DNA from: a virus
Lineage: Duplodnaviria > Caudoviricetes
IMG/VR virus record: IMGVR_UViG_3300004457_000145
Span: 1 to 52,590 of that record
Direction: 5' to 3' (one strand)
DNA: 52,590 nt
A program made the translations under genes and the position numbers. Position 1 is the first letter of the stretch, and every line of letters starts with the position of its first letter. Under the pieces are notes generated by a model. It did not search any database. It was not told the origin of the DNA and saw only the letters and a program-made list of their open reading frames with translations. This document shows positions 37,201 through 50,580 of this stretch, in pieces.

Positions 37201-38756
37201 ATTTACGCATGGGTAGAACAGATGGTAATGCATCTAACCCTGGCATTTACTTTAGTTCTTCTCAACTTGCTGCAAATTACAACTCATCTATTGTTGCAAC
37301 TGGAGGAACAGGAGTTGATGGTTCTGGAACACTAAATGTTCAAGTTGTTGATTCTGACGGATTCACTGTCAAAGGAAACATTATTTGGAATGAAGGTAAC
37401 GTTGCATTTAATGATACCAATATTGTTACTACTTACAATGCTCTTGGTCTTCCAACACTAAGAAGCGCAGTAATGCGTGATGCCTCTGGTGACTTTGCTG
37501 CTAATCAGATTACAGTCAAAGCAGGTTTTGATGGTATCGTTGGTGCTTCGTCACTGAACGTATTGAAATCTGGCGATACAATGACTGGCACCTTGGATAT
37601 TACAGGTGCTGGTTCTGGTCTATCCGTTCAGGGAATCACTGGTTTGACTGGTGACGTTACCATGGATAACGACCTTACCATCGGAACTAATGTATTCTTT
37701 GTAGATGAATCCGAAGAAGAGGTTGGTATCGGAACTCTTGTTCCATCAGATAAACTATCTGTAGTTGGTGGTTCCTTCTCTATTGCTTCTGGAGGTGGTT
37801 CTAATTCGATTGGAACTACTAATGGTTTCGGTATTGTATACGATACCACTAACGGTGTCGCTTATCAAATATCGAAGTCCACCAGTGGAAACACTTCAAT
37901 CACTTGGGGAACTTCCGAATCTGGAACGACTACCAATAAGATGTCTCTTGATCCTTCAGGTGATCTTTATCCTCTCCTGTCTACTCAAGATTTAGGTCTG
38001 AATGCTACTAACAACAGATGGAGAAATGCATACATCAAAGATGTATATGCTAAGTCTTCTCTGGCAATTTCAGATGCTACTGCTAATGCAGGAGCTCCTG
38101 CATACTTCCTAGGTGCCTCTGGTTTCCGTAACTTCCGAGTTGGTAACCAACTGTTAGCAGATAATACATTTGAAATCACTGCAAGCACTGCAAATGGTGG
38201 TCAGGCATGGAACAGCACTCCTGCACTGTTTATTCAAGGTTCTACTAATAGAGTTGCAATTAATACCACTAACTTTAGTGGAACTGATACGTCAGAAGCA
38301 ACACCTGTAACTAGAAACTATCAACTGAATATTGAAGGTGACCTGAACTTCAATGGTCAACTCTTCCAGAACAACGAAGAGTTTGTTACTTCAAGATGGA
38401 CACTGAATAAGACTACCAATAATATTTGGAGACTGTCTAAAGTTGGTGTTGGCAAACCTGACCCAGTTTATACTATAGAGACTGCTCCTCTAGTAGTCAG
38501 TGGTTCTCTTGTTAACGATGGTTCCGTTAATGTTGGTGGTTCTACTTTCAGTTCTGGTGTAAACACTAGTGTTGTATATGCAAACGCAGATCCTCAGTAT
38601 ATTGATACTTACGGTATTTTCAAAACAAACCGCAATACAATCAGCGAAGGAATCACAATTCCTTCAGCAACAAATGCTATGAGTGCAGGTCCTCTAACTA
38701 TAAATAACGGTGTAGTCGTCGTTATTCCAAACGGTTCTTCCTGGTCGGTTGTCTAA
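28269..38756 (+). CDS. Giant tail fibre / structural protein (3495 aa)
   Basis: KIATTEYV; beta-helix entry IYVS..GSDLNDG..PVRTVKRA; two GLDAD(L/R)LD fibre motifs; C-terminal NAMSAGPLTINNGVVVVIPNGSSWSVV typical of marine phage fibres. Confidence 0.82.
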   Translation: MSFNINSDKEFIKASKPQIIGTAEFAIKSGVGVDEKEVIRALLDSEEKLPRVGINRTGQRVNNITVLTGGSGYTIRPTVTVSPPPAGVEGAIQALASSFIFNGRVSSIAINNPGKGYSEPPTVTITGGNGAGATAEAFLDTVDFELDINGAIRTSTSIISDTARILNLDIDNFVTPDANFRGPNLKNYMNNTGTIWSANVIVQKDSYRYFGSNVYQAINAGQTGDFAPEHLDGIVLNGEVQLKHIGFRVVDSTEFGYNETGEAGIFPRSITPLLGDRSDKIATTEYVLNLATNDVGGRIYVSSQIGSDLNDGRSAVNPVRTVKRAAQLAWETVGVKETLIVSGGDYVEDNPISLPPDASVVGDNLRLVIIRPNNPGKHIFKFGDKNYVTGVTYRDKVDANGDSVATWDFAMVFDDKQRILIDKEANGDFGVNFPTGHQVFGPSKFQINFQNNSGLAQLASGLEAIGVNTGARGDISNVRFDNLTGNNAYRNGKLDIVITSGSFLSGEGFRYLINGTQGVSLDSSSGTTRANALDNTILMSTDPTLSNIIPGGYVYLDGTSNALVGNGFYEVLQIDDDSAPEYYVTVAPILGSVGWREELAGTIDIYAASVNEGAFDSTSIDSIRSEGEVVYTTEDFDTPLPLSRIDFTLQGTFNDGFQNEVFGDAEDLGGIVFYTNALVGRENTHDFKEGEEILIEGLPTVSPDLSFLNGFQRIYKVIEDPDGRARRFVIPKKVDAALGLNSNNNFDPGQFATVKSATRSVTLSLLNSPNTFPLATPVDRRFQDAVTFIRNNRDFISDEVVGRINDEFKKEYYSVYNIAGTASSQFTPTDVSYNPATGDSVFTVANHGLVAGDGVRIDDDSVVFTCAMDGNATEHSAPQSHHYSSGKTLPITASTTNTFTVNVGASGPDQQYTPSNATYNPATGDMVLTIGTHGLSIGEGVVIDDNSLSFTCQMDGFDTAKTYPRPGIDPFAGRSIPIKDTSDTTITLYVGVSGANQYFTPSNATYDPVTGDMTVTVGQHGLGVGRSVVLEDESFTFTCALDGNQSNHQYPRPGQDPFAGKSIAITAVGATQHTATDVDYDAVTGDTEITIPSHGFTTGDYIKISDGSLVFTCDLDGNTVQKSYPRPSYDYPSNRWLSITVIDSEKFRVNIGASSYEGTHTFVSASSNGIDRQDGTFTINVGTSSDTSAHTFVSASVGAIKHEPQSIHSFQGSTANAIKHLPQSAHTFVRAATGAIKVGGSTFDIFLGTTDDIHTYVSGGTVEYGGSTYSISNFAYDNIVTGVATVTVANPINNITDDATVKLADILLSCANGQKVYPSFSIPVDDTQCKQDVAHFLNALTRDLEFGCNHNMIEAAKKYIVGAKISYVENEIIQTVRAVEYTTQLAIFAMCNWRIGNRTPGEDVYTPVYSSIPRYFDDTVITTTATDGGTIACSNVESAIRTLSFLYVDVLANNTNGTNLDAAYLIARNRHLIADLALIDTETLYPSLNLSDTHQRKCRRDISYILGGLIRDLSLGGNSGIVTNAEFYYSGAALTGIDASQLEETRYAYTRVAEYAKSAMRNWSSSTTSEVVEVTPTTATYTPASGVVVIQIPTPSTIPDLNDRIAFKEGALTFTCSGGTHASPTPTDRNYGNSLTITNINNVGGGILEITVNVGNVTSLTGNVPHTFDSALADGTIIIYNPVDTSNSDIPKVEDWNILLYPTTPLCSNVATAIDTSFALLDGILEYADDDQSPTAIQPGATAIDTGTLYDTANIITYPDSFIYDADNQRVAVRGDYDDYPIIEASPYTQNASVISFLGGGGAEVDGNKVKQPNCPFPGLELDGTASFPNQGKSMVAAAFTIVSFGGTGYRVVNDGYTQLVSVFVIFCADGVLAESGGYCSITNSATNFGQFALRAIGFREEPYVFDAGYFSEGSYIRAIITNVSQTPTGRTILTIENLGREPLEHYILKVDGLRNVDEDTEFFVEEITQVGAGPPFTATCIFDDGSGSPVELVDIATGSTVTAANLSGRTVNLHRPSIVNSSSHTWEFAGSGTNYLALPENGGTKVEANEQVSEFYGRVYVSGTDELGDFKVGTFAKIENRTGAITFTGTVTISEVEFLKLKGGDVVVTGFDDSNTLGGASSSDSKIPTQKAVRDFITNNLGAYIQKEYSTNSVPRALVELTDSGKISLDQIPALRPFEVYTVSNLSERLEIEGALAGDIAIQQDNNTSFILNNDNDSLFLAFAVDPTLTFTINDIFEGSISQGQIQSTEYRQGVMYQIVITDPGSGYTIPPTLTISGGSPGLGAIGASASCTIANGQVVTVSIDEFNGYVGGFGYTAQPTITFSAPPAGGTQATGLALIESRLYGNIVNAIKITDTDQIDSSDLPAETVNLTRTINTSASDSNNWVSLSTSTVDARDITGGPIATDLLATNSTAANSYTFLRGDQSYALAVQSLKSPEERYFAKLTVPAQSGSINMVFATNQNALQGHLIVDSVFGIPSETIIQSVTTESGLTTIGFAQEKALTATIPAGTIIEFRRATSPIRFDSTFTEGNFIEEIIIADGGNGFTNGEYFNQGVVGGNGQGLKATYIVENNQVVDILITSGGSNYTQDFSTNIAPSVIGSGTGLDLRCKRSTINRQYANVTVDIDRVQEGSVDPEYGTVGVARFDKAQFFINVGGEGSIRLKTASNSVDSGLDADLLDGKQGSFYQNASSLTSGTLDSDRLAGTYNIDISGQSQNTIRLLSGINNPSSNPSPNTFSTGIISDTKNNNADQLVDGGTKHMVLTLRSGPDATYGGIRQLAFTDNDNMWLRGSGTGVTTFGTWAKIWTSENDGIDTGLDADRLDNKQGTWYQNALNINYGTVSANRLPTFQSATSFRNTLKVKSYNGDPKYNIYVSGRILSTLPTPNPFTPGNAVKVYNANSQAIGDLEIDNLIINDDTADNFNDYTIIQARLISGGFTGALTIGTASNRVEFQDFTIADDNNIDIATLESDGGTANLRMGRTDGNASNPGIYFSSSQLAANYNSSIVATGGTGVDGSGTLNVQVVDSDGFTVKGNIIWNEGNVAFNDTNIVTTYNALGLPTLRSAVMRDASGDFAANQITVKAGFDGIVGASSLNVLKSGDTMTGTLDITGAGSGLSVQGITGLTGDVTMDNDLTIGTNVFFVDESEEEVGIGTLVPSDKLSVVGGSFSIASGGGSNSIGTTNGFGIVYDTTNGVAYQISKSTSGNTSITWGTSESGTTTNKMSLDPSGDLYPLLSTQDLGLNATNNRWRNAYIKDVYAKSSLAISDATANAGAPAYFLGASGFRNFRVGNQLLADNTFEITASTANGGQAWNSTPALFIQGSTNRVAINTTNFSGTDTSEATPVTRNYQLNIEGDLNFNGQLFQNNEEFVTSRWTLNKTTNNIWRLSKVGVGKPDPVYTIETAPLVVSGSLVNDGSVNVGGSTFSSGVNTSVVYANADPQYIDTYGIFKTNRNTISEGITIPSATNAMSAGPLTINNGVVVVIPNGSSWSVV
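30741..31980 (+). repeat. Four nested ~90-aa coding repeats (YxxxTG..HG..FTC..DG..YPRP..NVG..HTFV)
   Basis: Visible in translation. Includes an exact 19-bp direct repeat CACACACGTTTGTAAGCGC at 31744-31762 and 31834-31852. Confidence 0.8.
38699..38706 (+). promoter_or_regulatory. T4 late promoter TATAAATA inside the 3' end of the fibre gene
   Basis: Perfect consensus about 53 nt before the first Gly-rich gene. Confidence 0.65.
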
Positions 38757-38758
38757 AT

Positions 38759-39517
38759 ATGAGTTCACTATACGTCAATAACATCCAGTCATCAACTGGA
38801 ACTGTTGTAACTATACCAGCTGGCAATGCATTGTCATTTGCTGGGACGCAACTAAGTTCAAACACCATCTTACCTTCGCCTCAAGCAGGTAAGATGGTAT
38901 TTTCTAATGGATCTAATTATGAGTTTGGTGACTATGGTGCTGTAAGAGTTATTCAATTTCAAAGTAATACAACTTACACAGTTCCTAATAATGTTTCTAT
39001 GGTTCACGTTAAATTATGTGGAGCTGGTGGAGGTGGGTCTGGACACGGTGAGTCTGGAGGAGCTGGTGGTTATGCTGAGGGATTCTTTACCGCATCTCAA
39101 TTGGGTGGTGCTGGAGCATCAATCGCAATCACTGTAGGAACTTCTGGAACTGCAACATATTATTCTGGATCGAGTGGTAATGGCGGAACAACATCATTCG
39201 GAAGTTTAATGTCCGCAACTGGGGGACGAGGTGCTAACAGTGTAAACCAACACTGTGGTGGTCATGGTGGACTTGGATCAGGAGGATCAGTAAACCTTTA
39301 TGGTGGTGGTGCTGGCGGACACGTCACATATAATCATAGAGGTGGATCTAGTTACTTCGGTGGTGGTGGTGCTGCTGGTCACCCACAAGGTGGCGCATAT
39401 GCATTCAACCACTCCCAAAATTGTGCCCCTGGTGGCGGTGGTGCAGGAGAGCATTATAGATCATACTCGGGAGGATTTGGAAAAACAGGTATCATCATAA
39501 TCATGGAGTATAGATAA
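38759..39517 (+). CDS. Glycine-rich fibre-tip/adhesin-like protein 1
   Basis: LCGAGGGGSG, GGAGGYAE, GGTTSFG, HCGG, GHPQGG, C-terminal GIIIIMEY; polyglycine-rich domain. Confidence 0.8.
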   Translation: MSSLYVNNIQSSTGTVVTIPAGNALSFAGTQLSSNTILPSPQAGKMVFSNGSNYEFGDYGAVRVIQFQSNTTYTVPNNVSMVHVKLCGAGGGGSGHGESGGAGGYAEGFFTASQLGGAGASIAITVGTSGTATYYSGSSGNGGTTSFGSLMSATGGRGANSVNQHCGGHGGLGSGGSVNLYGGGAGGHVTYNHRGGSSYFGGGGAAGHPQGGAYAFNHSQNCAPGGGGAGEHYRSYSGGFGKTGIIIIMEYR

Positions 39518-40282
39518 ATGTCAGTATTAAGAGTAAACGAACTCAGGTCACAAACAGGCAACATCATCAGCATTCCTTCAGGACACGAATTGGTTTTGGA
39601 TACTACTCCAATCAATTCAAACGCTTTGCCACCAACAGCAGGAACTGCTAATTCAGGAAAATTTCTAAAGTCATCTAATGGTTCTTCTATTGGATGGGAG
39701 TCTGTAGGTCCAGTTTCTATTAGAACATATACTTCTAGTGGAACGTGGTCTAGACCAGCTGGTGTTACTAAGATTCTAGTAAGACTTGTAGGAGGTGGTG
39801 GTGCAGGTTCAGGTGTTGGAGAATCTGGTGCTGCTGGTGGATATTCAGAAAGGTTGCTTGATGTAACTTCTATCAGCAGTGTATCAGTAACTATTGGAGC
39901 AGGTTCAGCTTCTCCTACCACGTATTCAGGTAGATCAGGTAACGGCGGAACAACATCATTTGGATCATATTTATCGGCATCTGGTGGCGCTGGTGCTAAT
40001 ACATCACATCAACATTGCGGTGGTCTTCCTGGAATAGGTTCAGGAGGAGATATTAACCTCTACGGAGGTGGCGGAAATGGACATTCTTACTATGGTTGTG
40101 GGGATGGAGGAACATCATTTTTTGGTGGATCTGGAGCAGTTGGACACCCACAAGGTGGACAATATGCACACAATAATTCAGAATCAGCTGGATTTGGTGC
40201 AGGTGGTGGTCCTGGATATCATACATCAACTCAAGGTGCCAAAGGTAAAGGTGGCGTTGTAGTAGTATACGAATTTAAATAA
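39518..40282 (+). CDS. Glycine-rich fibre-tip/adhesin-like protein 2
   Basis: Paralogue of the previous gene: YTSSGTWSRPAGVTKILVRLVGGGG, HCGG, GHPQGG, GVVVVYEF. Confidence 0.8.
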   Translation: MSVLRVNELRSQTGNIISIPSGHELVLDTTPINSNALPPTAGTANSGKFLKSSNGSSIGWESVGPVSIRTYTSSGTWSRPAGVTKILVRLVGGGGAGSGVGESGAAGGYSERLLDVTSISSVSVTIGAGSASPTTYSGRSGNGGTTSFGSYLSASGGAGANTSHQHCGGLPGIGSGGDINLYGGGGNGHSYYGCGDGGTSFFGGSGAVGHPQGGQYAHNNSESAGFGAGGGPGYHTSTQGAKGKGGVVVVYEFK

Positions 40283-40283
40283 A

Positions 40284-41048
40284 ATGAGCACTCTATCAGT
40301 AAATAACATCGAAGCGGCACAAGGTGGTGTCGTTAATATTCCATCAGGTTATAGTATATCTGTCGATGGCATTTTAATTAATGGCAATACTTTACCTCCA
40401 ACTCCGTCTGGAAGTAATCAAGGTCAAGCACTCTATGTTAATAGTAGTGGAAATCTAGACTTTTCAACTTCTGGTCCTAGAAGTATTCAAACGTTTACTT
40501 CTAGTGGAACTTGGACTAAACCTTCAGGTATTTCAAAAGTTCTTGTTCAAATTGTTGGTGGCGGTGGTGCGGCTTCTAGTTATGGAGAATCTGGTGCTGC
40601 TGGAGGATTTTCAGAAAAACTAATTGATGTTACTGGAACTAATAGTGTAACTGTTACTGTTGGAGCAGGTTCATCTGCATATACATCATACTCAGGTAGA
40701 GCAGGTGGTGGTGGAACATCTTCATTTGGTTCCTTTATGTCTGCTACTGGAGGTGGCGGGGGGAATAGCGCACACCAACATTGCGGCGGTCTTCCTGGAC
40801 TAGGTTCTGGTGGTGATCTAAATATCTATGGGGGTGGAGGTGCTGGACACTCATATTATGGAAGATTTGGTGGAGGAGATTCTTTCTTCGGTGGTGGTGG
40901 TGCTGCTGGTCACCCACAAGGCGGTTACTATGCTTACAATAATAGAGAACTAGTTGCTGCTGGTGGTGGCGGTTCAGGTGGTTATCATTACTACAGTCAC
41001 GGTGCTACTGGAAAAGATGGTGTTGTTATTGTATACGAATATTCCTAA
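40284..41048 (+). CDS. Glycine-rich fibre-tip/adhesin-like protein 3
   Basis: Paralogue: FTSSGTWTKPSGISKVLVQIVGGGG, HCGG, GHPQGG, GVVIVYEY. Confidence 0.8.
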   Translation: MSTLSVNNIEAAQGGVVNIPSGYSISVDGILINGNTLPPTPSGSNQGQALYVNSSGNLDFSTSGPRSIQTFTSSGTWTKPSGISKVLVQIVGGGGAASSYGESGAAGGFSEKLIDVTGTNSVTVTVGAGSSAYTSYSGRAGGGGTSSFGSFMSATGGGGGNSAHQHCGGLPGLGSGGDLNIYGGGGAGHSYYGRFGGGDSFFGGGGAAGHPQGGYYAYNNRELVAAGGGGSGGYHYYSHGATGKDGVVIVYEYS

Positions 41049-41051
41049 ATA
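41045..41051 (+). promoter_or_regulatory. Possible late promoter CTAAATA
   Basis: Overlaps the stop codon of Gly-rich gene 3, about 22 nt before the next ATG. Confidence 0.55.
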
Positions 41052-41073
41052 TTAAAGAGAAAAATTTTTAAAA

Positions 41074-41535
41074 ATGAAAAGAGTATTAGTAGATTACAGA
41101 GGACTGATCAGCGAAGTCGTTGACGTTGGTTCCGAGTTTCCTGTTTATAACGGAGCAGACGCTACCCTTAAGTGGGTTCTTTGTCCTAATGACGAAGTAA
41201 CTGCTCTCTGGCATCTGTCAGAAGGACAGTGGGTTTCCCCAGAACAGAAAGTTGACTATGATCAAAACATGAAAAGAAAGATTGCCTATGGAGACATTGG
41301 CGATCAACTTGATCTACTCTTCAAAGATATTAAATCAGGACATTTGTCTGATGGAGAATGGGTTGCCAGTATTGATAGAGTAAAGACAGAAATCGAATCA
41401 CAGCGTTCATACGAAGCAAACTCGGCTAACTTTGAAGGAAAGGTTAGAGTAAAAATTCATGGCACCGAAGATCCATCATGGAACTATCTACCAAATTCTG
41501 ATTTGATTCCCCCCGAATTTCCTAACGACAACTGA
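41074..41535 (+). CDS. Putative tail fibre assembly/chaperone-like protein
   Basis: RKIAYGDIGDQLDLLFKDI...W...I..VK motif, recalled from proteins next to fibre genes in marine phages; position supports this. Confidence 0.55.
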   Translation: MKRVLVDYRGLISEVVDVGSEFPVYNGADATLKWVLCPNDEVTALWHLSEGQWVSPEQKVDYDQNMKRKIAYGDIGDQLDLLFKDIKSGHLSDGEWVASIDRVKTEIESQRSYEANSANFEGKVRVKIHGTEDPSWNYLPNSDLIPPEFPNDN

Positions 41536-41550
41536 TAACATCTCTATATT

Positions 41551-43050
41551 ATGAAAGTCAATTCAATATGCATTGTCGGTGGTGGCACTGCAGGATGGAT
41601 GTCTGCGGCAACTTTCTCAAGAGTTTTTCCAGATAAGAAGATTACTCTTGTCGAGTCTCCATCTATTGCCACCATCGGTGTTGGAGAATCTACCACTCAG
41701 TTCTTTAGAAAGTGGTTGAACTTTATTGATCTTGATAATTCATGGATGGAAGAATGCGATGCCACATACAAGTTTAGTGTAAGGTTTGAAAACTTCAACG
41801 AAGAAGATCCTTTCCACTATCCATTTACAACGCAAGACTCAAGGAAAGATCCAACTGCGTGGTTCATACACAAAGCAATTACTCCAGGATTGTCTGTGAG
41901 TGATTATGCTGATTGGTATGCTCCACAAATGAAAGCAGTTAATGAGGGTAGAATACCAACCCAAGACTTTGATAGATTTGTTCTGAAGAGAGACACAGGT
42001 TTCCACTTCGACGCTACTAAGTTTGCAACTTGGTTAAAGAATAATTTGTGTCAGAATGTAGAGCACATTGAAGCAGATGTTATTAGTGCCGACCTAGATG
42101 AGTCTGGCAATATAGAGAGTTTACATCTTGACAATGATTCATTGTTGAAAGCAGATCTATTCATTGATTGCACAGGATTTAGATCTTACTTGATCAATGA
42201 TATCATGAAGACTCCATGGGAGACCTTTGATGATATGCTACCCAATGATAGTGCATGGACTGTAAGACTTCCATATACAGATAAAAAGTCTCAGATGAGG
42301 ACTTATACTAACTGCACTGCATTGAACAATGGTTGGGTATGGAATGTCCCATTGAGAAATAGAATAGGAACAGGATACAACTATTCATCAAAGTTTATTA
42401 GTGATGAGGATGCTCTAGAAGAATTTAAAGAGCACCTTGGATATCCTAAAGAAACTCTATGTGAATATAGAAACATCAAATTTAAAACGGGAATCTCAAA
42501 GAAACCCTGGAACAAAAATGTCCTTGCAATTGGATTGTCTGGTGGATTTATTGAACCCCTAGAATCAAATGGATTGCTTAGTGTCCATGAATGGTTGATC
42601 TATGCTTCTCAAATAATTGGAGACAATGCAGTAAGAGCATTAGATATTAATGCATTCAACTTTACTGTTACCAAAGAGTTTAAAACTTTTGCTTACTTTG
42701 TATATTATCACTATGCTTTATCAAGTAGAACTGACTCTCCATACTGGAAGTATATGACAGAACAATATGATGGACATGGAGATCTTCATGATGAATATTT
42801 GTATAAAACTAGAAAGGCAACTACGCCATTGAACAAATTAGAATATGAAAAATTTACTTATACTAACTATAGTGGCGAATCTTTTATCATGGCAGGACAC
42901 GGATACAATCCATTTAATCTTGTAACTCTAAGACTTCTAGAGACAGAAAACATCATTGACAAAGGTTCATATATATCTTTAGATAACTATAAGCATTACG
43001 ACGGCTTAGTTAATACATTCCCATTTGCTCACGAATATTATGAAAGTTGA
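41551..43050 (+). CDS. Flavin-dependent halogenase, tryptophan-halogenase (PrnA-like) family, copy 1
   Basis: GGGTAG FAD motif, IGVGEST, ATYK (catalytic Lys position), HFDA, FIDCTGF, WVWNVP, FIEPLESNG. Confidence 0.9.
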   Translation: MKVNSICIVGGGTAGWMSAATFSRVFPDKKITLVESPSIATIGVGESTTQFFRKWLNFIDLDNSWMEECDATYKFSVRFENFNEEDPFHYPFTTQDSRKDPTAWFIHKAITPGLSVSDYADWYAPQMKAVNEGRIPTQDFDRFVLKRDTGFHFDATKFATWLKNNLCQNVEHIEADVISADLDESGNIESLHLDNDSLLKADLFIDCTGFRSYLINDIMKTPWETFDDMLPNDSAWTVRLPYTDKKSQMRTYTNCTALNNGWVWNVPLRNRIGTGYNYSSKFISDEDALEEFKEHLGYPKETLCEYRNIKFKTGISKKPWNKNVLAIGLSGGFIEPLESNGLLSVHEWLIYASQIIGDNAVRALDINAFNFTVTKEFKTFAYFVYYHYALSSRTDSPYWKYMTEQYDGHGDLHDEYLYKTRKATTPLNKLEYEKFTYTNYSGESFIMAGHGYNPFNLVTLRLLETENIIDKGSYISLDNYKHYDGLVNTFPFAHEYYES

Positions 43051-44662
43051 AAAGATCGTTATTGTTGGTGGTGGTTCGTCTGGATGGATGACTGCAGCAC
43101 TATTGGCAAAACAACTGCCTCATATTAATGTTACAGTTATTGAACCCGAAGATATTCCTACGGTTGGTGTTGGAGAGTCAACACTTGGTCATATCAATAG
43201 ATACATGAAGATGATTGGCATTCTCGATAGAGAAAAAGAATGGATGCCATACTGTGCTGCAACGTATAAAGTATCAATTCAGTTTACAGACTTTACACAC
43301 ATTGGAGATAGATACCAATATCCATTTGGTCAGATGGATTATAGTAATGATATCAGTCTTCAAGACTATGCTTATATCAAAGCAAGACATCCTGAATTTG
43401 AAGTTCCGTATGCTAACTTCTACAATCCTATAGCATACTTAGCAGACAATAATAAAATGACTGCTGATTCTAGGGTTATCAGGAATTTTGATTTCAACTA
43501 TGACACATCATATCATTTTGACGCTGCTCGTTTTGGGGAATGGTTAAAAATTAATATATGTGAACCAGAGGGTGTCACTGTAATTAGAGATTCAGTTGAA
43601 AATATTAATGTGAATAATGATGGTATTGAATCGTTAGTATTAAAAAAAGATAAATCTAAAATTACTGCAGATCTATTCATTGATTGCACAGGATTCAAAT
43701 CTCTTCTTCTAGAGCAAACTATGGGTTCTGAGTTTGTAAGTTTCAGTGATGTTCTTCCTAATGACAAAGCAATTGCTACAAAAATTCCATATGTCGATAA
43801 GAAAAAAGAAATTCATAATGTAACAGACTGCCATGCTTTATCTGCTGGTTGGGTTTGGGATATTCCTTTGTGGCATAGAAGAGGAACTGGATATGTATAC
43901 TCCAGCAAATATATTAGTAGAGAAGATGCAGAGACAGAATTTAGAGCACATCTTGCCAAGACTCTAGATCCAAAGAGAGCAGAAGAAGCAGAATTTTTTG
44001 AGATTGATATTCGTCATGGAAAAAGAAAAAGAGCATGGGTTAAGAACGTAGTTGGTATTGGACTCTCCTATGGGTTCTTAGAACCCCTAGAATCTACAGG
44101 ACTTTTCACTACACATGAAAATGCTATTATGCTAGTTAACACCCTTGAGAGACGTTCTGGGTTTGTCTCGAAGGTTGATGTCGATGGATATAACTATGCT
44201 GCAGATCATATCATCGAATGCTTTAAGTCATTTATTCAGTTCCATTATTCCCTGTCACAGAGAGAAGATAGTCAATATTGGAAAGATCAAATTCATAACA
44301 CTCCTTTGTATTACAATGATAATCCTACTGACATTACATTGACATCCCCAAGATTGTATAAGGAATATTTACATGCAGTAAATGTAGCTAATGTCAGTGA
44401 AGACCTACAAGGATTAAATTATATTGCAGGGGGGATGGGGTATAATCATGTTGGACCATCGGAAACCAACTTCAGACTTAGCAAACAATACGCTGATCCG
44501 TCTAGAATAAATAAGGGTATGGTAGTATCTAGACAAACCAGAGACTATGTGATGCGCCAAATTGTTAATATGCAGTCTACTTATGAATTTCTCCAAAATA
44601 ATGTCTACTTTGAATATATTTCGACAGAGAGAAAATACACACCGAAAGAATACAACTTCTAA
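43040..44662 (+). CDS. Flavin-dependent halogenase, PrnA-like family, copy 2
   Basis: ATG 43040 (MKVEKIVIVGGGSSG), VGVGEST, ATYK, YHFDA, FIDCTGF, WVWDIP, FLEPLESTG. Confidence 0.9.
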   Translation: MKVEKIVIVGGGSSGWMTAALLAKQLPHINVTVIEPEDIPTVGVGESTLGHINRYMKMIGILDREKEWMPYCAATYKVSIQFTDFTHIGDRYQYPFGQMDYSNDISLQDYAYIKARHPEFEVPYANFYNPIAYLADNNKMTADSRVIRNFDFNYDTSYHFDAARFGEWLKINICEPEGVTVIRDSVENINVNNDGIESLVLKKDKSKITADLFIDCTGFKSLLLEQTMGSEFVSFSDVLPNDKAIATKIPYVDKKKEIHNVTDCHALSAGWVWDIPLWHRRGTGYVYSSKYISREDAETEFRAHLAKTLDPKRAEEAEFFEIDIRHGKRKRAWVKNVVGIGLSYGFLEPLESTGLFTTHENAIMLVNTLERRSGFVSKVDVDGYNYAADHIIECFKSFIQFHYSLSQREDSQYWKDQIHNTPLYYNDNPTDITLTSPRLYKEYLHAVNVANVSEDLQGLNYIAGGMGYNHVGPSETNFRLSKQYADPSRINKGMVVSRQTRDYVMRQIVNMQSTYEFLQNNVYFEYISTERKYTPKEYNF

Positions 44663-45428
44663 GATTAAATTTATTTCAACTGTTCCTGGAGTGAGCACTT
44701 TATATCCAATCACTCCAGCAATGAAATATAAAAGAGAATGGATTGGCGAAGAGAAAGAAGACTACAAAGAAAGAAAATCAAAGTGTCCTGTTAATAGTCT
44801 GGTAGCACCTCTTATAGGTTCTATTACAAAGTGTCCTGCTGTAAAAGCAACAATGGGATCAGGATATATTCTGAGAGCACCTGCTGATTTTAAGATTCAT
44901 ACGAATGGAGATGGCGAAACTCTACTACCAACAGCAAGAGATATTCATCAACGCTATACTTATATTGTAACACACGAAAAAGAAATTACTGATTGGTTAC
45001 TGAGTCCTGCTCTAAGAGAAAAAACAGTAAAGACTGTGGTTAAAGTTAATACTCCATGGAGACTCATCTGTCCAGATGATGATATTGTTTTCATGGTAAC
45101 TCCTGTTCCATTTACATCAGAAAGTCGCTTCTCTGCAGTTCAAGGTATCCTAGATCCAAAAACTGCATATGAAGTAAACGTCCAATTATATTGGCATGTT
45201 ATGGAAGGAGATGTTGTTATCAAAGCAGGAACTCCTCTGTGTCAATATATTCCTATTTCAAGAAAAGCATTGACTTCGGAAATTGAATGTTATGATGCCA
45301 CCCAGTATGATCATAAGATGGAAGATGAGATTTACTATGCAGGTATTCACACTTACATGGAAGAATCTACAGGGACAGAAAAAATGCTGAGAATCTCTAA
45401 AATTATGAATAAGTATTATGGTAATTAA
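44601..45428 (+). CDS. Conserved phage hypothetical protein (KCP..GY..P.D / IKAGTPLCQYIP; possibly dUTPase-like beta fold)
   Basis: ORF track 44562..45428; start uncertain (ATG 44601 or later). Confidence 0.6.
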   Translation: MSTLNIFRQRENTHRKNTTSKIKFISTVPGVSTLYPITPAMKYKREWIGEEKEDYKERKSKCPVNSLVAPLIGSITKCPAVKATMGSGYILRAPADFKIHTNGDGETLLPTARDIHQRYTYIVTHEKEITDWLLSPALREKTVKTVVKVNTPWRLICPDDDIVFMVTPVPFTSESRFSAVQGILDPKTAYEVNVQLYWHVMEGDVVIKAGTPLCQYIPISRKALTSEIECYDATQYDHKMEDEIYYAGIHTYMEESTGTEKMLRISKIMNKYYGN

Positions 45429-46047
45429 TTTATTTCCAACACCAATTTACAAGAGATCAATTCGTCCTACTGAATTAGAAAAAAATACTTGTGACAATTT
45501 CTTCGCAGAAATATTTGATAAGTTAGATAAGAATGTGTGGCCAGGTGAGTCTGGAAAATCAACAGGATACTATGATGTAGACTTACATACAAGACCAGAG
45601 TTTAAATGGTTGTTTGACGGAATGATAGAACCATTGAATACTTATTGGTGGGAAGTATTAAAATATCACAATGCTTTAGTTCCTACCATAACTAGTTCGT
45701 GGGCAAATCTTCATATGAAAGGAGAGTCTACTGATGTCCACTCACATGTTGATGGTTATGACGGACTCAATCATATCTCTGGAGTCTTTTACTACAAGAA
45801 ACAAAAGGAAGAAGAAAATATTAAATTTGCAAATCCACTGGATTCTTTATTGAGGTGTCAACCATACAGAGACATGAAAGGCATTGAAGAAATATCTACA
45901 GCACTAGAGACTGAATCATATGATCTATTAATTTTCCCTTCTTGGTTGAGACATAGAGTTGATCCAAACGTATTAGACGAACCACGTATTGCTATATCAT
46001 TTAACTGCAGAGGAAATTATGCTGGCACAGAAAACTTCATTAGATGA
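45418..46047 (+). CDS. Fe(II)/2OG oxygenase, TIGR02466-like
   Basis: LFPTPIY, SWAN, HSH, ISGVFY, LLIFPSWLRHRV, RIAISFN. Confidence 0.88.
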   Translation: MVINLFPTPIYKRSIRPTELEKNTCDNFFAEIFDKLDKNVWPGESGKSTGYYDVDLHTRPEFKWLFDGMIEPLNTYWWEVLKYHNALVPTITSSWANLHMKGESTDVHSHVDGYDGLNHISGVFYYKKQKEEENIKFANPLDSLLRCQPYRDMKGIEEISTALETESYDLLIFPSWLRHRVDPNVLDEPRIAISFNCRGNYAGTENFIR

Positions 46048-46783
46048 CTTTACTTTATGGAGTCCTAGTTCAGTATACTTCAATGATTTTATTAAAGTAA
46101 AGTCATTGAAAGATTGGGAGTATGAAAGAAAGGACAACTACTGGATTGCGGAGTCTCCATTTTATGAAGATGGATTGGATAGATTTAGAGACTTCGTAGC
46201 GCAATGTCCCGTATGGAGAACTAATTCAGAAAAAATATTTAAAGAGAACAATCCTTTTGCAACTATCCATTTACCTACTTGGGCAACAGCTGATGTGTGT
46301 CAATTGCTCAGGGATTTTTTTGTAGTAGAATGTGGTAGTAATTTTTATAATTATCACTACGAAGAGTGGGGTAATATTTTTGATAGAAATTATTGCAAAC
46401 CATTAAAGAGATGGAGAATTCCTCATATGGATTGGCCGAAAGGAATTGTAGGAAACTTATGGTTTGATGGTGGACAATCTACAGGAACTAAACTATACCG
46501 TTACAAAAGAAATGTAAACGTTACTCAGATGGAATTTCATTACAACACAGAACTTCCTCAACATCAAAAATGGATTTCATATGCTGATGATGATAGAGCA
46601 GATGAATGGTTTAATTTTGAAGACACAGATTACTGGGAGTTTGAAGAAATTGATTTTGCTCCTGCTAAAACTGGAACCATGACTTTATACCGTAGTAATA
46701 CAGCACACGATCCTTTCATCACACCAGACACTAATTTCAGATGGTCCCATACGTTCTGTTGCTTTATTGATCATGTATCTTGA
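46019..46783 (+). CDS. Putative Fe(II)/2OG oxygenase (HxD...H)
   Basis: ATG 46019 after GAGG; RIPHMD, GTKLY, MTLYRSNTAH, late Arg in FRWS. Confidence 0.65.
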   Translation: MLAQKTSLDDFTLWSPSSVYFNDFIKVKSLKDWEYERKDNYWIAESPFYEDGLDRFRDFVAQCPVWRTNSEKIFKENNPFATIHLPTWATADVCQLLRDFFVVECGSNFYNYHYEEWGNIFDRNYCKPLKRWRIPHMDWPKGIVGNLWFDGGQSTGTKLYRYKRNVNVTQMEFHYNTELPQHQKWISYADDDRADEWFNFEDTDYWEFEEIDFAPAKTGTMTLYRSNTAHDPFITPDTNFRWSHTFCCFIDHVS

Positions 46784-47345
46784 ACCAGTATTTTCTACAC
46801 CTATATGGTCGGAACAATTAGAGTTAGACTTATCAAGTCTTGAGAGATATGCATATAGTCTCCAGGAAAAAGATTCTGGCAGAGTTATATCAAATCATGG
46901 AGGTTGGCAGTCTTCTGATATATTTGAGTTTGATAATACCCCTATCGAACCTCTAATAAATAATATTAGGAAACTACTAAAGGTATGTTTTCAAACACTG
47001 GAAGTCCCAAATATTCCAGTCATAGACAATGCATGGGTTAATATCAATCCTCCAGGATCTTTTAACAAACCACATATTCATGGGAATAATTGTTTTCTTG
47101 CAGTTGTATTTTACGTAAAGGCAGCAAATAATAGCGGAAGTATATTTTTTGATAGAGGTTCTCTTCAAGAATATATCTTAAGTAATTTTGTTCCTGGCGG
47201 TAGGAATACTTTTAACAGTTCTAGATGGCAGTATCAATCAAAAGAAAATCAAGTTATCATTTTCCCATCTTGGATTTCTCATTCTGTCGGCGTAAACGAA
47301 TCAGATAGCGACCGAATCTCTATAGCATTAAATGTAAAAATATGA
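46773..47345 (+). CDS. Fe(II)/2OG oxygenase, TIGR02466-like
   Basis: FSTPIW, SNHGGWQS, WVNIN, PHIH, IIFPSWISHSV, RISIALN. Confidence 0.88.
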   Translation: MYLEPVFSTPIWSEQLELDLSSLERYAYSLQEKDSGRVISNHGGWQSSDIFEFDNTPIEPLINNIRKLLKVCFQTLEVPNIPVIDNAWVNINPPGSFNKPHIHGNNCFLAVVFYVKAANNSGSIFFDRGSLQEYILSNFVPGGRNTFNSSRWQYQSKENQVIIFPSWISHSVGVNESDSDRISIALNVKI

Positions 47346-47977
47346 TTGAACTTAATAATTTTTTATCAGACAGACTAAATCGCCATTACGAAAATATTTT
47401 ATTTCATGGAGAGTTCCCTTGGTATTATGCTGATAACATTACAAATAGTCCCACGCATTTTAATTCATATCCTATAGATTATAAACAGTATGGATTTCAT
47501 CATACTTGTTTTATGGAGTATGAATCTAGAAGTTCTACTTTATCATACTTTACTCATCTAGTAGAAATGGTTAAAGATGAACTACCAGAAAATCCAGAAG
47601 GTCATGATTGGGAATTGTTTAGAGTGAGGTGTGGATTTAATCTTCCATTGAGTCCTATCAATAAAAGATATGCTTCTCTAGATCATAACCAACCACATGT
47701 TGATCATGATAACATAGTTGTTACTGGTAAAACTTTAACTTGTTTGTATTATGTTAATGATACAGATGGAGATACTTTTATTTTTAACGAGAAACTAAAA
47801 CCTGCTCCTTCATCATGGCCAGCAAAATTTACTGTTAAGACTAGAGTAAATCCTACCAGAAATAAATTATTAATTTTTGATGGCGATCATTTCCATGCAA
47901 GTTCTAGTCCTGTTGAATATGAATCAAGATTAGTATTAACATTTAATTTTCATGATAGACGTTACCAACTTCCATAA
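47342..47977 (+). CDS. Fe(II)/2OG oxygenase
   Basis: PHVD, LYYVNDTDGDT, LIFDGDHFHASSSP, RLVLTFN. Confidence 0.85.
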   Translation: MIELNNFLSDRLNRHYENILFHGEFPWYYADNITNSPTHFNSYPIDYKQYGFHHTCFMEYESRSSTLSYFTHLVEMVKDELPENPEGHDWELFRVRCGFNLPLSPINKRYASLDHNQPHVDHDNIVVTGKTLTCLYYVNDTDGDTFIFNEKLKPAPSSWPAKFTVKTRVNPTRNKLLIFDGDHFHASSSPVEYESRLVLTFNFHDRRYQLP

Positions 47978-48677
47978 ATTTTTAGAAAGAATTCATTCAG
48001 AATGTTTATTCGATGAAAAACCTCTTCATGGTAAGAATGTTTTTTCCGAACCAGTGGCTACATGGAATGATGTCAATGATGTAATTAACTTCAATAGAGG
48101 AGTAGTTGACATCATCGATAGTAATGGAAATCGTATAGATGTTCCCGCACTTAAATATTTTTGGTCTAGTAGAATACTACAGAGCAAGGTAGAAATTACA
48201 CAACAAATTTTAAAAGGAAATTGTTTTTCTATATCTCAATGTTTCTACCTTAACGAACCTGTTAATTACATACTTAATATACTAGAAGAAAGATTTGATT
48301 TGATATGTGATGCTCATCTATATGGAGGAATAAGTGGCGAAGCAAATTCATTTCATCCTCATGTAGATGTTCCATCTAATTTTATTATTCAACTAGAAGG
48401 AGATACTCAATGGACGATATATAAGAACACTGCTTCGGACATGTATCCACAAGAATATATTAATTCTTATAGAAATGTAGATTGTCTAGAACCAGAGATA
48501 GAAGTTATATTAACTCCTGGAGATATTTTATACATTCCCCCTAGAAAATATCATAAAGCAAATCCAAGCGGTAAAAGATTATCTCTAAGCATACCTGCTG
48601 CATCTAAGAAATACACTAATGCTCTCCCTATCGACAGACAATTATATGATATTACCAAAGGATGTTCATTTAATTAA
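47952..48677 (+). CDS. JmjC/cupin-4 oxygenase (YcfD/ROX-like)
   Basis: AHLY, SFHPHVD..NFIIQLEG...W, LTPGDILYIPPRKYHKA, RLSLS. Confidence 0.85.
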   Translation: MIDVTNFHKFLERIHSECLFDEKPLHGKNVFSEPVATWNDVNDVINFNRGVVDIIDSNGNRIDVPALKYFWSSRILQSKVEITQQILKGNCFSISQCFYLNEPVNYILNILEERFDLICDAHLYGGISGEANSFHPHVDVPSNFIIQLEGDTQWTIYKNTASDMYPQEYINSYRNVDCLEPEIEVILTPGDILYIPPRKYHKANPSGKRLSLSIPAASKKYTNALPIDRQLYDITKGCSFN

Positions 48678-49239
48678 GAATCATATTAATAAAGATGTTG
48701 TGTCTTTGTTGCTATCTGAGATTAGGATGTTTGTAGAAGCATCAAAAATTTTTGGAGATAGTAGTGGATATGTAGACGATACCTTTAATTGGTATTCTCC
48801 TCCTGGTTGTGAAGCATTGATGTTAAATCAAAAACAATTTGTTGAAGAAAAAATAGGATTAAATTTATATCCAACATATAGTTATGCTAGAATATACAAC
48901 AAAGGTAGTGAACTCAAAAAACATTTAGATAGAAAAAGTTCTGAACATGTAGTTACTTGCTGTTTATATAAAGAATCTCCATATCCCATCACTATAGATG
49001 ATGGCGATAATCTACATCATATAGATCTAGAGGTGGGGGATATACTAATATTCCCTGGCAGAAAGTATTTTCACTGGAGAGATAAATATCAGGGAAAGGA
49101 ACATATTCATTGTTTTCTTCAATATGTTGATGCTGATGGTTCATTGGCAGACTACAAGTATGATACTAGACCATGCTTGGGTTCCAACTACCAATTTACA
49201 GATCAAAAAGTTAAAGATGAAATGATACGAGGTTATTAA
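48646..49239 (+). CDS. Fe(II)/2OG oxygenase, prolyl-hydroxylase-like
   Basis: LYPTYSYARIY..G.EL.KHLDR, GDILIFPG...HWR, FLQYV; start probably ATG 48646. Confidence 0.85.
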   Translation: MILPKDVHLIKNHINKDVVSLLLSEIRMFVEASKIFGDSSGYVDDTFNWYSPPGCEALMLNQKQFVEEKIGLNLYPTYSYARIYNKGSELKKHLDRKSSEHVVTCCLYKESPYPITIDDGDNLHHIDLEVGDILIFPGRKYFHWRDKYQGKEHIHCFLQYVDADGSLADYKYDTRPCLGSNYQFTDQKVKDEMIRGY

Positions 49240-49508
49240 TGTCTACAGAAACTGAAGAGAAAAAAGATCTTAAAACTTTAGATGAAGTTTGGGATACGTT
49301 CTCGGAGCGACTTGCTGATGCTAGAGTAGCTCTAATAAATAAGAGAGAAGAGATTGAAAAACAAACAGAAATCTCTACGCGAATTGATCTAACAGAACAT
49401 CACGATCTACAGATCATGGTGCATAAGTTAGAAGCAGCACTTGAAACTCTTAACGTAGTTAGAGTCGAGTGTTTAGGACTAGAATCATTAATCAATTATG
49501 AGGTATAA
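49239..49508 (+). CDS. Small helical/coiled-coil hypothetical protein
   Basis: 89 aa, coupled to the previous gene via TAATG, GAGG RBS. Confidence 0.75.
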   Translation: MSTETEEKKDLKTLDEVWDTFSERLADARVALINKREEIEKQTEISTRIDLTEHHDLQIMVHKLEAALETLNVVRVECLGLESLINYEV

Positions 49509-49510
49509 AA

Positions 49511-49696
49511 ATGGATACTGAACAACTTAAAAAGAATTTTGACGATCAACTTGCTCAAACTCTAAAGCAAATTGGGGAACTCAAAGAAAATCTAAAGAAG
49601 GCAGAGGAATATAAACTGAAGCTAGAGGGAGGTCTTGAAACCTTGCTTATGTTGAATCCTCCAGAAGAAGAAGCAGCAGAAGCACCAGCAGAATAA
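49511..49696 (+). CDS. Small coiled-coil hypothetical protein
   Basis: 61 aa, GAGGT RBS, heptad pattern, acidic tail. Confidence 0.8.
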   Translation: MDTEQLKKNFDDQLAQTLKQIGELKENLKKAEEYKLKLEGGLETLLMLNPPEEEAAEAPAE

Positions 49697-49700
49697 CTCT

Positions 49701-49736
49701 AAGTCCCTGCCTGATAAATACAGGTAGGGACTTTTT
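49701..49736 (+). terminator. Rho-independent terminator with late promoter ATAAATA as its loop
   Basis: AAGTCCCTGCCTG-ataaata-CAGGTAGGGACTT (13-bp stem, one G-U pair) running into TTTTT. Confidence 0.85.
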
Positions 49737-49748
49737 GTATCTAGGTGC

Positions 49749-50579: not shown

Positions 50580-50580
50580 G

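Follow-up and report, generated by a model that had tools for sequence, protein, structure and literature searches.

Organization of the locus

We analysed a stretch of cyanophage DNA of 52,590 nucleotides (nt), the IMG/VR record IMGVR_UViG_3300004457_000145 in its full length (referred to below as the window), and concentrated on the block at positions 38759-49239, in which genes of putative fibre-tip adhesins are followed by those of two predicted flavin-dependent halogenases and a series of predicted iron- and 2-oxoglutarate (2OG)-dependent oxygenases. The block shares 99.9% identity with Cyanophage S-RIM44 isolate Np_42_0711 (KX349294/NC_047734), which is one of the T4-like cyanomyoviruses and belongs to the genus Vellamovirus. 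All genes of the block lie on the plus strand. The gene of a fibre of 3495 amino acids (aa) is followed by three Gly-rich genes, a 153-aa gene, two halogenase genes, a phrog_7084 gene, six oxygenase or oxygenase-like genes and two small open reading frames (ORFs); a hairpin terminator then closes the operon, and the neck genes gp13-gp15 come next. The main features are:

28269..38756, plus strand: giant tail fibre or structural protein, 3495 aa ('tail fiber protein' in NC_047734; 63-70% DNA identity to the Syn1 fibre)
38759..39517, plus strand: Gly-rich tip protein A, 252 aa, polyglycine/tumour necrosis factor (TNF)-like adhesin family (PF21722, E 1.5e-10; phrog_863, E 1.3e-56)
39518..40282, plus strand: Gly-rich tip protein B, 254 aa (PF21722, E 9.7e-9; structure model)
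40284..41048, plus strand: Gly-rich tip protein C, 254 aa (PF21722, E 1.5e-8)
41074..41535, plus strand: small protein, 153 aa, phrog_1787 (function unknown), probable tip-specific assembly chaperone (phrog_1787, E 2.3e-32)
41551..43050, plus strand: flavin-dependent halogenase 1, 499 aa (PF04820, E 7.7e-102; VirX1 6QGM, E 2.5e-93)
43040..44662, plus strand: flavin-dependent halogenase 2, 540 aa, positional orthologue of VirX1 (PF04820, E 2.8e-109; VirX1, E 4.6e-134)
44601..45428 (RefSeq start 44721), plus strand: dUTPase-fold protein, phrog_7084, called p7084 below (phrog_7084, E 2.5e-79; AlphaFold2 model, predicted local distance difference test (pLDDT) 87.9)
45418..46047, plus strand: 2OG-Fe(II) oxygenase, TIGR02466/Oxy_5 type (PF13759, 59.2 bits, cut-off 27; TIGR02466, E 2.5e-18)
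46019..46783, plus strand: DUF6445-like protein, probable 2OG oxygenase by motif only (PF20043, 19.4 bits, cut-off 24; phrog_1644)
46773..47345, plus strand: 2OG-Fe(II) oxygenase, TIGR02466/Oxy_5 type (PF13759, 61.7 bits; TIGR02466, E 3.9e-22)
47342..47977, plus strand: 2OG-Fe(II) oxygenase, Oxy_3 (prolyl-hydroxylase-like) type (PF13640, 30.9 bits, cut-off 27; invariant H119, D121, H185)
47952..48677, plus strand: JmjC_2 (cupin-4) oxygenase (PF08007, 68.6 bits, cut-off 22; phrog_8014, E 2.9e-97)
48646..49239, plus strand: 'ferrochelatase'-labelled protein, probable 2OG oxygenase by motif only (invariant H93, D95, H143; no Pfam match)

All ORF positions given in an earlier reading of the window, made from its letters alone (below, the sequence-only reading), were borne out by the ORF list. 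The tight and overlapping packing described there was found as well: 8 of the 15 junctions between the fibre gene and position 49696 are overlaps, and the widest gap is 58 nt. Even this gap, which precedes the RefSeq start of the p7084 gene, is probably not real, because this gene likely starts at 44601 and overlaps halogenase 2.

Linkage of tip and halogenase genes in related phages

The arrangement was followed in relatives from two sides. Starting from the tips, IMG/VR was searched with an alignment of the Gly-rich proteins, and the best 80 of 317 confirmed relatives gave 79 loci, with three Gly-rich copies in 73, two in five and four in one. Ten of these loci are too short downstream to judge; in all 69 that have at least 1200 nt after the last Gly-rich gene, a halogenase gene lies 473-1328 nt downstream (median 563). 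Clustered at 90, 70 and 60% identity, the halogenases of the tip-based loci fall into 39, 17 and eight groups, respectively, and the labelled genes that follow them come from the same enzyme families. Starting from the halogenases (best 80 of 586 confirmed relatives in IMG/VR), 63 loci could be evaluated, another 17 being too short upstream. A Gly_rich_2 gene adjoins the halogenase in 43 of them, and a different ORF with at least 18% glycine lies within 5 kb in eight. The automatic test found neither in 12, eight of which were read by eye: three small tip paralogues are present in one (L132), a 769-aa Gly-rich fibre, a 162-aa gene, the halogenase and an Oxy_5 gene in another (L192), and a 532-aa adhesin with 23% glycine in a third (L195); four (L139, L145, L160, L186) have no tip gene, and one (L193) is ambiguous. 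Among the 11 named phages inspected, all with a halogenase at least 37% identical, Gly-rich genes adjoin it in ten (S-RIM44, Sf-CH3, Sf-FR1, Sf-CH1a, Syn9, S-CREM1, P-TIM40, S-WAM1, P-RSM6 and S-SZBM1). The upstream order is constant, whereas the downstream flank varies, with gp13 in Vellamovirus-like phages and small ORFs, helicase and methylase genes in Syn9, P-TIM40 and S-WAM1. The sequence-only reading had named a lack of linkage to fibre genes in relatives as evidence that would count against it; the linkage proved near-universal (69/69; 43/63 plus 8/63).

Some loci depart from the common enzyme set. Four tandem halogenases stand behind a set of three Gly-rich genes, the small gene and an Oxy_5 gene in L172 and L182 (both IMG/VR), and a single halogenase, with no further oxygenase run, is found in L144, L154 and L164. 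Two tandem VirX1-like halogenases, three 2OG genes and at least three proteins with CxxxCxxC motifs, which are typical of radical-SAM enzymes, occur with no tip gene in L025 (IMG/VR 3300020440_000010). Here the same halogenase clade may serve another purpose, directed at a peptide or a metabolite.

The link between tips and enzymes holds through rearrangement and in a phage that is not T4-like. Four oxygenase-like genes and a halogenase gene stand between two longer Gly-rich genes (30% and 27% glycine) in Sf-CH1a, a 2OG gene lies between a structural gene and the Gly-rich genes in P-RSM6, and a halogenase with two oxygenase-like genes accompanies three small tips with a C1q-type motif in L020 and L022. 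The phage of locus L024, not T4-like, has a 722-aa portal protein of phrog_1216 and a capsid protein of phrog_1357; its fibre ends in a Gly_rich_2 domain and is followed by a halogenase, a phrog_1787 gene and an Oxy_5 gene.

Comparison with Syn1 gave a DNA identity of 95.7% up to position 24019, 63-70% through the fibres, none at 37432-49511 and 96.3% after that; the neck genes of the window are 97.7% identical to those of Syn1 and of other S-RIM44 isolates. Because identity drops across fibres, tips and enzymes between flanks of about 96%, all three have been replaced as one block, the right edge of which falls just past the enzyme run. The same slot holds a non-Gly tip, a related 122-aa gene and a single Oxy_5-type oxygenase in Syn1, and three virion structural tip proteins with no enzyme in S-PM2. 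The whole of 24019-49511 (about 25.5 kb, with structural proteins, giant fibre, tips and enzymes) is diverged from or non-homologous to Syn1 and other S-RIM44 isolates, and judged from these alignments it looks like an exchange of a host-recognition cassette within one named species.

In L020, L022 and L132, tips of other families likewise occur as trios of paralogues (170-197 aa) with a gene of 91-113 aa behind them; one of these families has the C1q-type motif FxAPxxGxYxF and the other a conserved C-terminal RIYxGHxxFxG. It seems that small tips are quite generally triplicated. Between tips and gp13 of S-RIM32 (L033, 19303-19593), a 96-aa fragment annotated as a 2OG oxygenase, beside two tiny reverse ORFs, looks like a decayed enzyme remnant.

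Gly-rich tip proteins and the small gene

The three Gly-rich proteins, previously recognized as paralogues, are 46-49% identical in pairs. All exceed the cut-off of the Pfam family Gly_rich_2 (PF21722; 41.9, 36.0 and 35.4 bits for A, B and C, cut-off 24.3) and match phrog_863 as well; in five complete genomes Gly_rich_2 was found at this one site only. A search of PDB sequences with the family profile gave no match. The AlphaFold2 model of tip B (pLDDT 88.1) matched in Foldseek the fiber of Cyanophage Pam3 (7YPX_A, E 1.1e-7, 28% identity, template modelling score 0.55), Bxb1 tail-tip chains and the glycine-rich domain of ALK/LTK; 7YFW_a and 9D93 Q chains are among the chains matched. The predicted fold of the Gly-rich proteins is a TNF-like sandwich with a glycine-rich lattice. 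On the strength of this fibre fold, the idea that they are precursor peptides was rejected. An N-terminal motif, MSxLxVNxI, is common to them and to the tips occupying the same slot in Syn1 and S-PM2. The Tyr/His-rich loops to which the sequence-only reading had drawn attention are real and conserved: 25 positions are Tyr, Trp, Phe or His in at least 60% of 35 homologues, and Y136, F148, H166 and H189 are invariant.

Pam3 gp24 has been described as a trimeric receptor-recognising fibre present in virions, and its glycine-rich domain has been read as the receptor-recognising tip. The predicted fold of the window's tips is shared with Pam3 gp24 and with the S16 adhesin gp38, but the loops between glycine runs are conserved here and not hypervariable. 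Pam3 also has one baseplate-docking fibre, whereas three paralogues with MSxLxVNxI stand behind a 3495-aa fibre in the window, and the battery of enzymes behind them has no counterpart mentioned in the sections of the Pam3 study consulted.

The small phrog_1787 gene comes after the last Gly-rich gene in every untruncated locus, and other tip types, such as the non-Gly tip of Syn1 with its 122-aa gene, are likewise trailed by a gene of 90-160 aa. A parallel is offered by Pam3 gp25, a 162-aa chaperone which, according to the same study, is encoded beside gp24, helps it to fold and is absent from virions; the window's gene lies directly downstream of the tips as gp25 does of gp24, but no sequence match between the two proteins was found. 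No Pfam or NCBIfam family matched the small protein, phrog_1787 being its sole family match, and a profile search of solved structures returned chance matches only (E at least 0.24). A protein atlas gave weak leads to XkdW and DUF2977 (0.85-0.86), and a complex prediction with tip B scored 0.01, which counts neither way. By position and size the gene most likely encodes an assembly chaperone of the tips. The earlier description of it as chaperone-like thus agrees with its place in the locus, with no likeness in sequence to known chaperones; since it has no sequence relative among solved structures or Pfam families, we can only infer this role.

Halogenases, oxygenases and the dUTPase-fold protein

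Two halogenases of the PrnA family with intact motifs had been predicted, and both match Trp_halogenase (PF04820) far above its cut-off of 21 (341.9 and 366.4 bits). The GxGxxG, catalytic Lys, WxWx(I/V)P and EPLES motifs (G10-G12, G15, K77, W271, W273, P276, E348-S352) do not vary among the 16 halogenases aligned, two of which are the window copies; copy 1 has V in place of I in WxWxIP. Halogenase 1 is an extra copy, present in 20 of the 55 loci with room for it, and halogenase 2 is 49.6% identical to the gene of Syn9/Syn10. VirX1 (PDB 6QGM) of cyanophage Syn10 is the best solved match of both. Syn9 gp42 equals VirX1 over its full length (1271 bits), and it is the second halogenase of a module in which Gly-rich genes, the small gene, two halogenases, phrog_7084 and 2OG genes are present; therefore, the characterised viral iodinase belongs to this module. 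Halide-dependent halogenation with reduced flavin is predicted for both window enzymes, this activity being documented for VirX1 alone. VirX1 has been studied as a biocatalyst: in vitro it halogenates a wide range of small aromatics, iodide being the preferred halide, and such small molecules are the only substrates documented for it in the review consulted. Its active site is unusually open and accepts bulky substrates, and the enzyme is a trimer. The table of that review gives no gene cluster for it.

The lack of a flavin reductase, noted before for the window, extends to the five complete genomes that carry the module, none of which has a match to Flavin_Reduct (PF01613), so that host reductases would be needed. 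The small gene and p7084 were considered as the missing reductase and rejected, neither matching PF01613 and p7084 having a dUTPase fold.

Five 2OG oxygenases and one JmjC enzyme had been proposed. Four of these genes exceed the Pfam cut-offs of 2OG/JmjC families (Oxy_5 twice, Oxy_3 and JmjC_2), and the DUF6445-like gene and the last gene of the run have an HxD...H motif only. In the former, H136, D138, H230 and S243 are invariant and R241 is at least 90% conserved; homologues of the latter in Sf-CH3 and S-CREM1 are labelled as 2OG dioxygenases by their depositors. Profile searches of PDB with these two genes, and hhalign comparisons of both and of p7084 with the Oxy_3 family, gave nothing significant. 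Since profile tests failed to tie these two to 2OG enzymes, we count four oxygenases as secure and two as probable. The RefSeq label 'ferrochelatase' for 48646-49239 corresponds to a match of E 0.12, which is not significant, and it is, like 'DNA endonuclease V' and 'minor coat protein', a PHROG name with no support from family scans. No oxygenase matched nucleic-acid families such as AlkB or TET/JBP in Pfam and NCBIfam scans. Characterised JmjC_2 and prolyl-hydroxylase-type enzymes hydroxylate proteins: ribosomal proteins in the case of JmjC_2/cupin-4 enzymes (YcfD/RoxA, NO66, MINA53), and collagen-like and HIF-type proteins in that of prolyl-4-hydroxylases. The phage enzymes resemble them in exceeding the PF08007 and PF13640 cut-offs and, for Oxy_3, in keeping the iron triad HxD...H; they are assigned by family, whereas the characterised enzymes have known protein substrates. 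To our knowledge, no member of TIGR02466/Oxy_5 has been characterised.

The gene that had been listed as one enzyme-like unknown is present and can now be assigned a dUTPase-like fold. Every one of the top 20 VIA-align matches of its model is a dUTPase or a dCTP deaminase (Z 9.6-6.0), and a dUTPase-type match was also given by Foldseek (E 2.8e-4, 14% identity). Its homologues share an N-terminal stretch of about 40 residues (RFxSLxPGVxxLYPI) that is encoded upstream of the RefSeq start; the gene therefore probably begins at the ATG at 44601, and the start at 44721 cuts off conserved residues. True dUTPases close the active site with a C-terminal glycine-rich motif V. The last 40 residues of p7084 form two helices in the model, and its alignment has no such motif; because helices stand where motif V would be, we file the protein as having a predicted dUTPase fold and not as a dUTPase. 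The gene comes after the halogenase in most loci, and it is missing from S-WAM1, P-RSM6, S-SZBM1 and L024, all of which keep the link between tip and halogenase.

Scaffold-forming enzymes, precursor peptides, carrier proteins and exporters or transporters were absent from the 18 proteins scanned (38759-52259), and the gene content of the block is thus not that of a cluster for secondary metabolites or for ribosomally synthesized and post-translationally modified peptides. Family scans of the block likewise found no glycosyltransferase, sugar-nucleotide enzyme, transporter or signal-bearing protein. The protein atlas gave one further lead, DUF6065 on 23% of the members of one cluster.

Predicted transcription

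The late-promoter consensus NATAAATA was taken from a review; its chance background is 2.7% per 150-nt stretch of these loci. The signals in the window are:

38699..38706, plus strand: late-promoter-like motif TATAAATA, 60 nt before tip A, inside the end of the fibre ORF (exact match)
41044..41051, plus strand: degenerate late-promoter motif CCTAAATA, one mismatch from NATAAATA, 30 nt before the small gene (sequence read)
49701..49733, plus strand: intrinsic-terminator-like hairpin (13-pair stem, seven G-C, T run)

The late promoter proposed at 38699 is thus an exact TATAAATA, and a motif of this type lies 58-64 nt upstream also in L001, L002, L003, L013, L015 and L018. It overlaps conserved codons (TINNG), so its conservation may come partly from coding. 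The second proposed promoter (41045) exists at 41044-41051 with one mismatch; in 49 of 75 loci the small gene is preceded by a perfect NATAAATA, always 31-35 nt from its start. The same consensus stands upstream of the first Gly-rich gene (35 of 77 loci), of the first halogenase (22 of 72; 28-34 nt from the start) and of gp13 (seven of eight relatives), and it was found before five of the oxygenase genes in none of 22-50 loci each. No terminator-like hairpin was found between the tip promoter sites and 49701, the position at which the first clear terminator had been placed and at which the 13-pair hairpin begins. The loop of the latter holds GATAAATA (49713-49720), the late-promoter motif for gp13, and the signals for termination and re-initiation are therefore nested. 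Sigma-70-like promoters show no enrichment, with 54 sites where 61.7 would be expected. Because late motifs precede tip, small and halogenase genes and no terminator comes before 49701, late transcription is predicted for the enzyme genes, by read-through from the promoters of the tips and together with the latter. The sequence-only reading had proposed a late-expressed cassette and had named an early independent promoter as evidence against it; the motifs agree with late expression, as a motif-based prediction.

Neighbouring features

49239..49696, plus strand: two small coiled-coil-like ORFs (89 and 61 aa) at the operon end (ORF list)
49749..50579, plus strand: gp13 neck protein, first gene of a conserved core module (NC_047734 annotation; 96.3% identity to Syn1 from 49511 on)

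The 61-aa ORF is kept before gp13 in Syn1, S-PM2 and S-RIM32, even where the enzymes are absent. In the Pelagibacter phage HTVC008M (L118), four 2OG genes and a 'ferrochelatase'-labelled gene lie on the opposite strand directly against gp13, and a distant halogenase and a 2OG gene lie between the small and large terminase genes. The content of guanine plus cytosine (G+C; window 42001-50000) is 0.33-0.36 in the enzyme genes, 0.40-0.43 in the fibre and tip genes and 0.38 in the neck genes. NtcA-like GTAN8TAC sites number 20 in the whole window against 12.2 expected, a count reached by 2 of 100 shuffles; only three of them (38964, 45343, 45577) are inside the block.

Discussion

Linkage in relatives and predicted late expression point to a conserved module in which putative receptor-binding tips are coupled to halogenases and oxidative enzymes. 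We favour the reading in which these enzymes modify the Gly-rich tips or other late virion proteins, and assign it a probability of roughly 0.45. It is preferred because the module goes with the tips in inheritance as well as in replacement, because it is functionally coherent and has no scaffold-building or export gene, and because it holds enzyme types known elsewhere as protein hydroxylases. The unusually open active site of the trimeric VirX1 is a further reason. A narrower proposal, in which the phage's own polyglycine adhesin serves VirX1-type halogenases as their natural substrate, with conserved Tyr, Trp or His at the tips brominated or iodinated and with hydroxylation in addition, is a tentative one, and we consider it less likely than not.

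A mechanism of this kind would start from a late tail-fibre operon producing three TNF-like and polyglycine tip adhesins, similar to Pam3 gp24, together with their chaperone. The same late promoters would supply an oxidative tailoring battery composed of two VirX1-type halogenases, the dUTPase-fold protein and four to six Fe/2OG and JmjC oxygenases, with the halogenases relying on reduced flavin (FADH2) of the host. Modification might then take place during late infection, as the adhesins are being synthesized and folded, with the adhesins themselves or other virion proteins produced in parallel as its targets. Conserved Tyr, Trp, His, Pro and Asn would be the likely sites, halogenation drawing on Br, I or Cl from seawater and being combined with hydroxylation, and the modification would tune the chemistry of the receptor-binding tip.

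Several points weigh against this reading. It is an inference from linkage, fold and family, with modified residues only predicted. Virion presence and receptor binding of the Gly-rich family are likewise predicted; the virion proteome of S-SZBM1 (Table 1 of that study, 30 proteins) lists the fibres gp51-54 and not the Gly-rich gp48/49. The Tyr/His positions in the loops are conserved rather than variable, and may therefore be just structural. The one characterised orthologue, VirX1, is known from the available reports only for small aromatic substrates in vitro. A conserved dUTPase-fold gene suggests a nucleotide ligand and has no role in tip modification. The halogenase of S-B64 lies beside sbcC with no Gly-rich genes, and halogenases of the VirX1 clade occur away from tips after a gp32-like gene (L027), in a replication block (L186) and in L139, L145 and L160. 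A distant halogenase clade (about 28-36% identity; Syn1_205, S-PM2, S-MbCM6, other S-RIM44 isolates) is found in metabolic-gene islands with talC, hli or psbA, and many cyanophage 2OG genes are scattered elsewhere. Most linked loci are from T4-like cyanophages, and the counts are for that reason inflated by shared descent. Finally, the enzyme genes are lower in G+C than the fibre and tip genes (0.33-0.36 and 0.40-0.43, respectively), a difference due in part to glycine codons.

One alternative is that a host metabolite, such as an aromatic amino acid, a pigment or a cofactor precursor, is halogenated and hydroxylated, and that the end of the fibre operon merely tolerates late genes. The broad activity of VirX1 on small aromatics in vitro would agree with this, as would the lower G+C content of the enzyme genes and the halogenases that occur with no tips in L025 (with its CxxxCxxC proteins) and L139. 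Earlier authors took prnA as an antibiotic-type or auxiliary metabolic gene, and Iyer et al. 2021 predicted that the S-SSM6a cluster makes a halogenated amino-acid or sugar metabolite. If the site were just a landing pad, however, assorted genes would be expected to gather in it, and a halogenase occupies it in all 69 of the 69 evaluable loci; moreover, the adjacency survives rearrangement and a change to a non-T4 phage, and the block encodes neither a scaffold-forming enzyme nor a carrier protein or exporter. Cyanophage metabolic genes belong for the most part to the early or middle class, whereas only late motifs were found here. We regard this explanation as unlikely.

Much of the same evidence would fit an effect on the receptor rather than on the tip: the enzymes could alter the host surface receptor of these tips, or its cytoplasmic precursor, so that progeny are not trapped on debris or superinfection is blocked. 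Linkage, joint replacement and late promoters agree with this equally well, and co-inheritance would be explained if the enzymes must match the tip type. There is a precedent in phage T5, which encodes the receptor-blocking llp beside the receptor-binding pb5. Decoration of capsular polysaccharide was proposed by Iyer et al. 2021 for a different cyanophage cluster of halogenase and 2OG genes. The enzymes are, however, cytoplasmic and cofactor-dependent, and the block has no glycosyltransferase, sugar-nucleotide enzyme, transporter or signal-bearing protein. Proteins are the best-known substrates of hydroxylases of the JmjC_2 and Oxy_3 types, and the same enzyme set accompanies at least three unrelated tip folds, a poor fit to one specific receptor chemistry. 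Receptor modification therefore seems to us rather improbable, somewhat more so than metabolite tailoring.

It could also be argued that the genes share no function and are independent accessory genes with unrelated substrates, kept in order by descent in one lineage, given that most linked loci belong to T4-like cyanomyoviruses and that the enzyme set varies from one halogenase alone (L144, L154, L164) to four (L172, L182). The link recurs, however, with different tip families, gene orders and downstream flanks and in a non-T4 phage, the genes overlap along the run, and the block is swapped as a unit between phages with flanks 96-97% identical, which leaves this explanation a small chance.

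A nucleotide or nucleic-acid substrate, with p7084 handling a pyrimidine nucleotide and the halogenase and oxygenases modifying a base (for instance uracil C5) to give modified DNA or RNA, would account for the exclusively dUTPase/dCTP deaminase fold matches of p7084, for its usual place behind the halogenase and for its invariant Asp residues at APADF and GILDP, the places of dUTPase motifs I and III, but it is very improbable, as p7084 is missing from four phages or loci that keep the tip-halogenase link, has a helical C-terminus with no motif V and may resemble the non-enzymatic dUTPase-fold proteins pp71 and ORF10, both among its VIA-align matches, as no oxygenase matched AlkB or TET/JBP, as a late-promoter setting beside fibre genes is unsuited to the supply of replication precursors, and as a review states that there is no evidence for modified bases in cyanomyoviruses.

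Tailoring of a virus's own particle by its own enzymes has precedents in the virion glycosylation of mycobacteriophages and the collagen hydroxylases of giant viruses. The module described here would resemble them in that virus enzymes act on structural proteins, and would differ in its chemistry (halogenation plus hydroxylation) and in its target (a receptor-binding tip). A comparable arrangement in the literature is the jumbo-cyanophage cluster of Iyer et al. 2021 (S-SSM6a, S-SSM7, P-SSM2), in which a halogenase, several 2OG oxygenases and cupin-like enzymes are also clustered. That cluster includes carbamoyltransferases, a HemK-like methylase and HAD phosphatases, all of which the window block lacks, and it was read as metabolite-making or capsule-decorating; its halogenase is only about 30% identical to those of the window, and the window block, unlike that cluster, sits between fibre tips and gp13.

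The gene families themselves and their abundance in cyanophages are already known, prnA-like and 2OG-oxygenase genes having been reported in 6 and 14 of 16 cyanophage genomes. A literature survey, outside which the primary papers on VirX1 and Syn9 fell, found no report connecting fibre proteins with halogenases or 2OG genes of cyanophages. What appears to be new, as judged from gene neighbourhoods, is the joining of polyglycine fibre adhesins, VirX1-type halogenases and these oxygenases in one module.

Few of the unexplained 'auxiliary metabolic genes' in ocean cyanophages are as common as those similar to prnA and those of 2OG oxygenases. If the VirX1 gene belongs to a tip module, there is a concrete and testable candidate for the natural substrate of this enzyme, and supposed metabolic genes would move into virion maturation. 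Should the adhesin indeed be the substrate of the halogenases, it would be the first halogenated viral structural protein, and host recognition would be tuned in a way that is invisible in the genome sequence alone. Recognition of hosts by abundant marine viruses would then be partly a matter of enzyme chemistry and seawater halides, which would affect the prediction of host range from genomes.

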